Shown: in pieces, positions 7,690 to 8,610 of the stretch
Layout of the letters: every line of letters begins with the position of its first letter
How positions within the stretch are numbered: position 1 is the stretch's first letter
Virus record (IMG/VR): IMGVR_UViG_2778261121_000004
Reading direction: 5' to 3' (one strand)
DNA from: a virus
Taxonomy: Duplodnaviria > Heunggongvirae > Uroviricota > Caudoviricetes
Length of the DNA stretch: 8,610 nucleotides
The notes under the pieces: model-generated
What the model saw: only the letters and a program-made list of their open reading frames with translations
The model's database searches: none
Told to the model about the DNA's origin: nothing
Made by a program: the position numbers and the translations under genes

Positions 7690-8610
7690 ATGAAGCATTT
7701 AACAAGTATTCGCGCAGCTCGCTATTTTCGAAAAGCAGGCCGTGCCGGTGTTATCGAACTGGCAACCAGTGAAAAAGATCCCGCAGCGGTGGCCCTACTT
7801 AAATCAGTTATTCCGGCATTGAGCACTGCTAACACGATGCTTGTTGCAAACGATAGTCAGGCGATTGAGCTTTCAACAAACCTTCTTGCTGACTCAGTTG
7901 TTGGGAACATCTTATCCAGCGCTCTTGAAATGCCGTTTAACGTCAAGGCTGACGTGATCAAAGGGTGTGATGCGGACTGGATCAAGGAAGGGCAAAAGAT
8001 CCGCGTGAAAGCTGGTAGCGCACACGGCAGAATTCTTTATCCGTACAAGCTGGGGACGCTGATCGTTATTGATGAAGAAATTGAAAGCATGGCAACACCG
8101 GGAACGGATAAAGCTATTTACAGTATGTTAAAAAGCGCTGCTGTAGAAAAAATGGATCGCACCTTCCTTTCTGATGCGGCAGAAGTGGTAGAGCTGTCTC
8201 CAGCCGGTGCACTCAAAGACGCGGTGATTGCTTCCAGCTATAAAGAATTGTTTAAGATCCACGCGGCAAACGGCAACAATCTAAAAAGCTCATTTTTGAT
8301 TATGCCAGTTGATACGCTGCTGGAAACTTCCGGCGATTTCCTCCGCGTGGTGGAGAAAACAGGCGCAACGGTTCTTACAAGCCAGTACGCCAAAGGCGTG
8401 TCGCTCATTGATGCGGGTAACATGATGATCAACATTGGCGGCACTGTGATTGATTCATCTAATCAAGGCTCTATTGATATGGATGACGGCTCGTCCGGCA
8501 TCGCTGCTGTAAGCCTCTTTCAGGCTCTGGCGATGGCATATCGCGCGAAAACATTTTGTGACTGGATGCCGTTGGCTGGTACTAAGCCCGTAACGGTTTT
8601 ACAGGCCTAA
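7690..8610 (+). CDS. Hypothetical protein (~306 aa); possibly a virion-structural or packaging protein of the satellite
   Basis: Stop at 8608-8610. ATG 7690 has AGGT 6 nt upstream; alternative starts are ATG 7657 and the track's TTG 7561. It is rich in Ala/Ser/Gly/Val/Ile, with no P-loop, HTH or Cys motifs. The structural role is inferred only from position after the replication module. Confidence 0.6.
   Translation: MKHLTSIRAARYFRKAGRAGVIELATSEKDPAAVALLKSVIPALSTANTMLVANDSQAIELSTNLLADSVVGNILSSALEMPFNVKADVIKGCDADWIKEGQKIRVKAGSAHGRILYPYKLGTLIVIDEEIESMATPGTDKAIYSMLKSAAVEKMDRTFLSDAAEVVELSPAGALKDAVIASSYKELFKIHAANGNNLKSSFLIMPVDTLLETSGDFLRVVEKTGATVLTSQYAKGVSLIDAGNMMINIGGTVIDSSNQGSIDMDDGSSGIAAVSLFQALAMAYRAKTFCDWMPLAGTKPVTVLQA

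Follow-up and report, generated by a model that had tools for sequence, protein, structure and literature searches.

A divergent HK97-fold major capsid protein homolog beside a phage cos-like region in a very small enterobacterial satellite island

The DNA analyzed here is a stretch of 8,610 nt from the tailed-phage record IMGVR_UViG_2778261121_000004, referred to as the window, and the subject of this study is its last gene (7690-8610, plus strand), which encodes a protein of 306 aa. The window matches the chromosome of Escherichia coli GPEC1186 (NZ_CM142789.1) at 100% identity and is carried by 1 of 5426 complete E. coli genomes; no copy of the gene's locus was found in the GTDB species-representative genomes. 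In GPEC1186, an island of ~8.5 kb is located between yhdJ and fis, inserted in the 3' end of fis. It is bounded by 80-nt direct repeats of the fis 3' end and terminator, namely attL at window 908-987 (9409-9488 in L001, the annotated GPEC1186 region; window coordinates equal L001 coordinates minus 8501) and attR at L001 17908-17986, ~800 nt past the window end. The flanks of the island are contiguous in records with an empty site. The gene order is tyrosine integrase (1183-2406, plus strand), a hypothetical protein of 252 aa, an AlpA-family regulator/excisionase (3255-3479, plus strand), a YlcI-family gene, two Icd-like genes, a DUF4222 gene, a replicase of the RepA/AAA_25 helicase type (5158-6573, plus strand), small proteins of 71 and 57 aa, and the 306-aa protein, which is followed by two Rha pseudogene fragments, an open reading frame (ORF) of 70 aa and fis. 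The integrase and AlpA were identified by Pfam and annotation, and the replicase by PHROG and Pfam. With its integrase, alpA, replicase with iterons, att repeats, small size and genes that mostly run the same way, the island has the layout of the Gram-negative phage-inducible chromosomal islands (PICIs; PMC6092414, PMC10111431), for which fis has already been reported as an integration site (Cnf1.45.fis; PMC10111431).

The reading frame of the last gene opens with a TTG at 7561, contains in-frame ATG codons at 7657 and 7690 and ends with TAA at 8608-8610, the final bases of the window. ATG 7690, with AGGT 7 nt upstream, is the start common to all homologs (M-K/N-H-L-T-S/A-I-R-A-A-R...), even at 50-54% identity. 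RefSeq uses ATG 7657, which results in a 317-aa form named 'hypothetical protein' (WP_137488625.1). A preliminary description, made from the letters of the window alone, had placed an ORF of ~306 aa at 7690-8610 after a replication module; this frame was verified, its start is conserved, and the module contains the RepA/AAA_25 helicase. Comparison of the orthologs from E. coli, Salmonella and Enterobacter gave a ratio of nonsynonymous to synonymous substitution rates (dN/dS) of 0.12-0.13 at a dS of 0.55-0.79 (Nei-Gojobori). The gene is under purifying selection and therefore no chance ORF.

The 306-aa protein had no match in Pfam, NCBIfam, PADLOC or a single-sequence PDB search, in line with the preliminary description, which had recognized no catalytic or DNA-binding motif. 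A role as a defence gene, for which PADLOC gave no match, was rejected. In PHROGs the sole match was phrog_617 'major head protein' (E = 3e-6), in which residues 51-283 aligned with positions 350-611 of the 626 in the profile. A word-indexed search of 5.8 billion proteins returned 10 clusters only, every one enterobacterial and unnamed. When a profile of these 10 clusters was compared with 1.84 billion cluster representatives, 1566 proteins were identified (E <= 1e-3), and 38 of 47 sampled family members matched PF05065 Phage_capsid. The family profile also matched major capsid proteins (MCPs) of solved structure, those of mycobacteriophage Bxb1 (E = 5e-19), R4C, DT57C/T5 and 80alpha. These matches to PHROG 617, PF05065 and solved MCPs argue strongly that the protein is a divergent HK97-fold MCP homolog, in a short form lacking the protease and the long scaffold domain. 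The similarity to established MCPs is significant, although it is seen via profiles and not as a direct Pfam match. With tblastn of the protein against 50,697 phage records, similarity of 22-28% identity was detected in phages of Burkholderia, Ralstonia and Moraxella only, and the Shiga toxin (Stx)-type phages of E. coli were missed.

The AlphaFold2 model supports this assignment, with a mean predicted local distance difference test (pLDDT) score of 90.2 and a predicted template modelling score of 0.86. This required the deeper alignment; with the 10 close homologs alone the pLDDT was 36. In the model, residues 2-27 and 31-40 form a helical hairpin at the N-terminus, which together with a low-confidence linker (residues 41-50) precedes the elements of the HK97 fold, which are an N-arm/E-loop, a spine helix (residues 137-159) and A and P domains. 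By the profile alignment to T5 pb8, the position matching the mature N-terminus falls close to residue 40, and residues 1-40 may thus be a vestigial delta/scaffold segment. A structural, possibly capsid-fold protein had been suggested in the preliminary description, and the profile searches, structure prediction and fold comparison indeed lead to a structural family, that of the HK97-fold MCPs. As encapsulins are among the structural neighbours of the model, a cellular HK97-fold shell, or a defence protein that shares the fold and is unrelated to virions, was also considered. Such an origin is highly improbable, since the sequence relatives are PF05065 phage MCPs and protease-MCP fusions, no cargo-type gene adjoins the MCP gene in the annotated region, PADLOC gave no match, the gene lies in a satellite beside a putative copy of a phage cos region, and relatives are paired with portal genes (see below).

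The 57-aa gene and the MCP gene are separated by a spacer of ~360 bp with a cos-like core at 7413-7498, in which a G-run and GATCGCCCC are followed by GGACACCGCCACCTCTCTCACGCACAGAAAAAAT (7452-7485) and a short hairpin. The core (G-run, GATCGC and GGACACCGCCACCTCTCTCACGCACAGAAAAAAT) is invariant across the satellite relatives, even those whose MCP is only 36-38% identical. A blastn search with window 7395-7500 identified 85 phage records with 80-83% identity over ~85 nt and E-values down to 6e-16. All 85 are Stx-converting or related lambdoid phages of E. coli, and the match always lies in unannotated DNA. In Stx2-converting phage 1717 it is found at 32667-32751, flanked by the genes for the HNH endonuclease (32293-32658) and the small terminase (32950-33513). 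This is where HNH-dependent cos phages carry cos, and the spacer is therefore read as a copy of a cos region. The HK97 record likewise begins and ends between the HNH and terS genes, and a role of HNH in packaging is described in the preprint on capsid-forming PICIs (cf-PICIs), citing Kala et al. 2014 (10.1101/2022.09.08.507074).

Downstream of the core, at 7503-7629, a palindrome, AAACATGTTT, is accompanied by a cluster of GTTAAC sites at 7525, 7599, 7611 and 7624, so that four of the seven sites in the window lie inside 105 nt (7525-7629). At the phage 1717 locus, where five of eight GTTAAC sites are located between the core and terS, palindrome and cluster likewise follow the core. It is proposed that the GTTAAC cluster represents cosB-like repeats for binding of the small terminase. 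Judged by its similarity and position, the region 7413-7629 would be a copy of the HNH-terS cos region of Stx-type lambdoid phages, with a presumed function as cos. A weak alignment puts the junction of the two ends of the HK97 record within the conserved core, which is only a hint, and the contig-end positions in IMG/VR, used to locate the cleavage point of cos, were inconsistent. The island itself contains this helper-type cos-like site and no terS, terL or HNH gene. The phage version of the cos element is present in 632 of the 5426 complete E. coli genomes with 1-7 copies each, and those listed are largely Shiga toxin-producing E. coli. The motif also occurs in at least 120 IMG/VR contigs, in which the head gene, where it lies within the fetched DNA, encodes a fusion of ~645-680 aa when intact.

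Such a fusion is the head protein of phage 1717 (ACI43153), which has 656 aa and contains a Peptidase_S78 domain (59-163), a coiled-coil segment and a Phage_capsid domain (397-646). When the satellite family was aligned with this protein by hhalign, a probability of 98.5% and an E-value of 2.5e-15 were obtained at 26% identity, and satellite residues 15-294 spanned phage 1717 residues 317-636. The counterpart of the satellite protein is thus the MCP part with a short piece ahead of it; the protease and most of the scaffold have no equivalent in the satellite protein. The Stx-type fusion head proteins (phage 1717, PHROG 617) are homologous to it across the entire MCP part and belong to phages with a matching cos, but the Peptidase_S78 domain and coiled-coil scaffold, which make up about the first 316 residues of the phage 1717 protein, are both absent from the satellite protein. 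Stx-type HNH-cos lambdoid phages are therewith the probable helper class, as judged from these similarities, and co-assembly of the satellite MCP with the helper head protein is plausible.

Islands with the same architecture occupy the same fis site in Salmonella (L002-L005) and Enterobacter bugandensis (L006), and a further one at this site lies on a metagenomic contig (L007) whose synteny is Enterobacter-like. Between these syntenic islands the replicase is swapped, and either the AAA_25 RepA (window 5158-6573), a D5_N/DUF5906 primase-helicase or a DUF927 protein is present (the swapped genes lie at 7067-8890 in L002 and at 6705-8816 in L006), while the DUF4222 gene and the module of 71-aa gene, 57-aa gene, cos-like region and MCP gene are retained. 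An MCP-only architecture at one site in three genera, with differing replicases, points to ongoing horizontal spread and recombination. It also speaks against the island being the decayed and immobile remains of a cf-PICI-like satellite, in which the MCP gene would be a leftover after loss of the portal, terminase and connector genes. A fuller set of head genes is present in some relatives, the Rha-gene fragments downstream show some decay of the right end, and the family is rare (10 clusters in 5.8 billion proteins, 1 of 5426 E. coli genomes, none in the GTDB species representatives), all of which would fit with decay. Nevertheless, we consider this unlikely, as the dN/dS of 0.12-0.13 at a dS of up to 0.79 indicates that the gene was kept through a long divergence, the cos core is preserved, and the island still has an intact integrase, alpA and replicase, intact iterons and perfect att repeats of 80 nt.

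The ten best matches of the family profile (E <= 1e-30) are all short proteins of ~315-332 aa, and long fusions appear only from E ~1e-19. The genomic context was read for eight of these ten short-MCP relatives, which are located on elements of 8.5-10.6 kb or on short contigs. P0012 belongs to L007, a fis island as in the window, in which the MCP gene is followed by a tailspike gene (L007 10960-12978; 672 aa, Pfam Tail_spike_N). Over its N-terminal 150 aa, this tailspike shares 45-51% identity with those of ~47-kb siphophages (Enterobacter ENT1, Shigella Sf11, Erwinia 59), and the L007 satellite appears to encode its own receptor-binding protein. For P0013 the order is 71-aa gene, 56-aa gene, cos, TerS, 51-aa gene and MCP, and P0014 and P0015 are on short contigs only. 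P0016 lies on a 9.9-kb contig in the order TerS-TerL-MCP-portal. P0019 is followed by a portal gene and three small ORFs on a 10.6-kb contig and is preceded on the 5' side by a degenerate cos core, and P0017 and P0020 are found as HNH-MCP-portal together with a VapE primase on contigs of 9.5-9.8 kb.

Terminal k-mer overlaps, the usual sign of circular or concatemeric assembly, were present in five contigs (L013, L014, L137, L138, L139), with overlaps of 29-55 nt and unit sizes of 9.5-10.6 kb. In these, the MCP gene lies beside a portal gene, in some with HNH or TerS/TerL, and a VapE or other primase is encoded. No recognizable protease or tail gene was found in the five, and no recognizable integrase in L137 and L139. 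They may be mini capsid-gene satellites or plasmid-like elements. That the MCP is constant in elements of 8.5-10.6 kb in which the other head and packaging genes vary argues that the clade is competent for assembly, and the narrow size range is the outcome expected from the capacity limit of a small capsid. Two further contigs, L011 (1-6320) and L012, share the MCP region and part ways after a conserved 3' element; in L011 an integrase gene and a minus-strand Terminase_2/DUF3950 gene follow the MCP gene. This arrangement may represent tandem or nested satellites. The MCP-integrase junction of L011 was considered as the junction of a fis-type att circle and was rejected, since it is no att site of the fis type.

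The fold, the homology to phage MCPs, the purifying selection, the cos similarity and the anatomy of the island are well supported by homology and prediction. Based on these and on the analogy to known satellites, the reading that is favoured, with moderate confidence, is that the island is a cos-type satellite of HNH-cos lambdoid phages that uses its own MCP to build or resize capsids. A helper of the Stx-type HNH-cos kind would induce the island, which, as suggested by its PICI layout, would excise and replicate from its own replicase and iterons. HNH, TerS and TerL of the helper would then recognize and cut the satellite copy of cos, as its sequence similarity and position suggest. The satellite MCP, in which only ~40 helical residues at the N-terminus stand where the helper protein has a protease and scaffold part of ~330-390 residues, would co-assemble with the helper head protein or make a shell alone, and the resulting small capsids would hold 8.5-10 kb and shut out the helper genome. 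We infer this small-capsid step from the analogy to SaPIbov5 Ccm and from the narrow element sizes of the MCP clade. The helper identity, the function of cos, the incorporation into capsids and the change in size are likewise inferred.

Several observations weigh against this proposal. The identity to the MCP domain of the candidate helper is just 26%, and tblastn alone was blind to it. GPEC1186 holds the satellite copy of the cos element only; because there is no second copy, it has no resident helper of this type. The cos assignment derives from position and similarity, and the likeness to the HK97 genome ends is weak. With 51-60 kb in total, six to seven 8.5-kb units would also be enough to fill a helper head of full size, and in EcCICFT073, the only Gram-negative PICI examined in this respect, deletion of the capsid homolog c1499 left the interference with lambda intact, while this island is packaged in full-size capsids (PMC6092414).

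These last points would fit with a capsid homolog that is dispensable for transfer, whereby concatemers of 6-7 units are packaged via the cos copy into unmodified helper heads (the helper genomes have 49-62 kb) and the MCP has another role, for example in interference, as a dominant-negative subunit that spoils assembly of the helper head, or as a spare gene. Also the absence of the protease and the long scaffold from the island agrees with this, as does the count of 21 among 29 reference Gram-negative PICIs with a capsid gene, which is reported to be unnecessary for transfer (PMC10111431). Yet members of the same clade occur beside a portal gene in circular-looking contigs of 9.5-10.6 kb without other capsid gene, which argues that they can form shells, and the element sizes cluster tightly at 8.5-10.6 kb. 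The strong purifying selection and the position kept amid module swaps count against a spare gene only and not against interference. Dispensability of the MCP for transfer is therefore regarded as less likely, although it is the main alternative.

A related, tentative possibility is that the clade forms a graded series of 'partially capsid-forming' satellites, from the contigs of ~10 kb with MCP and portal to the MCP-only island, in which a satellite shell would be combined with the portal of the helper and filled via cos by the HNH and terminase of the helper. Such a shell could be T=3-like (T, triangulation number), as T^1.5 scaling from HK97 (39.7 kb, T=7) results in ~11 kb compared with the 8.5-10.6 kb seen. 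If a satellite shell indeed carries a helper portal, the particle would be a hybrid, intermediate between the virions of classical PICIs, with shells made entirely of phage protein, and those of cf-PICIs, with heads made entirely of satellite protein.

The favoured reading, a cos satellite with its own MCP, has its closest analogy in SaPIbov5, a Staphylococcus aureus pathogenicity island (SaPI) whose Ccm (cos capsid morphogenesis) protein shares 19.2% identity with the capsid protein of the helper. Ccm takes the pentamer positions in small T=4 capsids, and its helical N-terminal domain has 82 residues compared with 126 in the helper protein (PMC5052747, PMC8569155). Both SaPIbov5, with its HNH-cos helpers phi12/phiSLT, and the present island have a helper-type cos, no terminase of their own and a single distant HK97-fold capsid homolog. 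In both Ccm and the present MCP the N-terminal helical domain is shorter than that of the helper or candidate helper, respectively, and the identities of 19.2% and 26% (the latter to the candidate helper type) are comparably low. No sequence kinship with Ccm or with the EcCI2 capsid protein was found, and the protein is not assigned to the Ccm family.

The Gram-negative PICIs EcCICFT073 (c1499), Eco567.11capE and PmCI172 resemble the present island in having integrase, alpA, replicase with ori, and a 'Late zone' in which cos accompanies a single capsid gene, and PmCI172 makes small capsids (PMC6092414, PMC10111431). As far as the descriptions in these papers allow comparison, the genes differ in that c1499 adjoins a homolog of head decoration, c1500, and the capsid protein of 11capE is of the lambda gpE family, whereas the present MCP is related to PF05065. 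The helpers of those PICIs are cos phages of the lambda/phi80 type without HNH, whereas the cos copied here is of the type found in HNH-cos phages with a protease-MCP fusion, and the islands have 10-20 kb compared with 8.5 kb. A PICI 'Late zone' capsid gene beside cos is thus already known, and new here are the MCP family, the type of cos and the unusually small island. The MCP family is unannotated and was overlooked by Pfam; it is a PF05065-related lineage and not the lambda gpE family reported for 11capE. The cos copy resembles that of HNH-cos phages with a protease-MCP fusion, which in Gram-negatives were hitherto known as helpers of full cf-PICIs.

These cf-PICIs (EcCIEDL933, EcCI2) are, as proposed for the present island, satellites of HNH-cos phages with their own HK97-fold MCP (bioRxiv 10.1101/2022.09.08.507074). 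Of the cf-PICI set of MCP, protease, portal, connectors, HNH, TerS and TerL, only the MCP is present in the island, which therefore falls outside the cf-PICI definition; its relatives hold partial sets. No portal, protease, HNH or terminase gene was found downstream of the MCP gene or elsewhere in the island, and no tail or lysis gene either (annotated gene list, Pfam). Protease, portal or small-terminase genes downstream of 8610, which the preliminary description had named as companions to look for, were accordingly not encountered there; that DNA holds the Rha fragments, the 70-aa ORF and fis. The outcome proposed here, small capsids with room for the satellite but not for the helper, is also that of P4 Sid/Psu, of CpmA/CpmB of SaPIs, of Rcm, and of TcaP of the PICI-like element PLE. 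Sid/Psu, CpmA/CpmB, Rcm and TcaP are external or internal scaffolds and not HK97-fold relatives. A P4-like Sid/Psu assignment was rejected; no Pfam match to size redirectors of these kinds was obtained among the island proteins scanned.

With these results, a fold and a likely role are given to a family called hypothetical in every database, and a probable helper class is named for a rare and very small (8.5 kb) enterobacterial satellite. The minimal island, in which a single MCP gene is accompanied only by a replicase, a cos copy and two small proteins, would offer a clean system in which resizing of helper capsids by a lone MCP can be distinguished from their replacement. Should their helpers be Stx-converting phages, satellites of this kind could also influence the production of Shiga-toxin phages.

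Among the remaining features, an iteron field at 6573-6800, directly 3' of the replicase gene, consists of dense direct and inverted repeats of the AAGTGCGCG type. It is the probable replication origin of the satellite, and its position agrees with that of the PICI ori (PMC6092414). A terminator-like hairpin follows the field at 6804-6819. The 71-aa protein (6924-7139, plus strand), encoded by the first gene of the conserved module, has a weak match to PHROG 3255, an entry without function, and looks ribbon-helix-helix-like in our own reading by eye. The 57-aa protein (7154-7327, plus strand), whose gene is always located upstream of the cos-like site and the MCP gene in the satellite group, is named 'antitermination protein NusG' in RefSeq; it had no match in Pfam, PHROG, NCBIfam or PADLOC and to our eye resembles a coiled coil. 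No phage homologs of either protein were found by tblastn. Megablast of the whole island against phages matched only the att/fis flanks and one Rha fragment, and no tRNA genes were found.

The ORF of 252 aa after the integrase (window 2400-3158) has a GC content of 32-37% compared with ~47% elsewhere and no match in Pfam, PHROG, NCBIfam or PADLOC. Its place is taken by a DUF6387 protein in the islands of Salmonella and Enterobacter, so that the site after the integrase looks like a variable accessory position. A plus-strand ORF of 344 aa (window 3488-4522), which overlaps the YlcI gene on the minus strand and the Icd-like genes and is absent from the RefSeq annotation, is probably spurious. 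Just inside both island ends, a 49-nt repeat (84% identical) is located at window 1090-1138 and L001 17856-17904; it contains tandem GTGTAGTCAG and probably represents arm-type binding sites of the integrase. Rfam scans of the window and the downstream region assigned no family to the conserved non-coding elements, the cos-like core included. One of these elements, of ~125 nt (L001 17118-17245), begins 8 nt past the window end at 8610, directly 3' of the MCP stop codon. It contains three short hairpins with almost no covariation and is nearly invariant among the E. coli, Salmonella and Enterobacter islands and a relative whose MCP is 36% identical.

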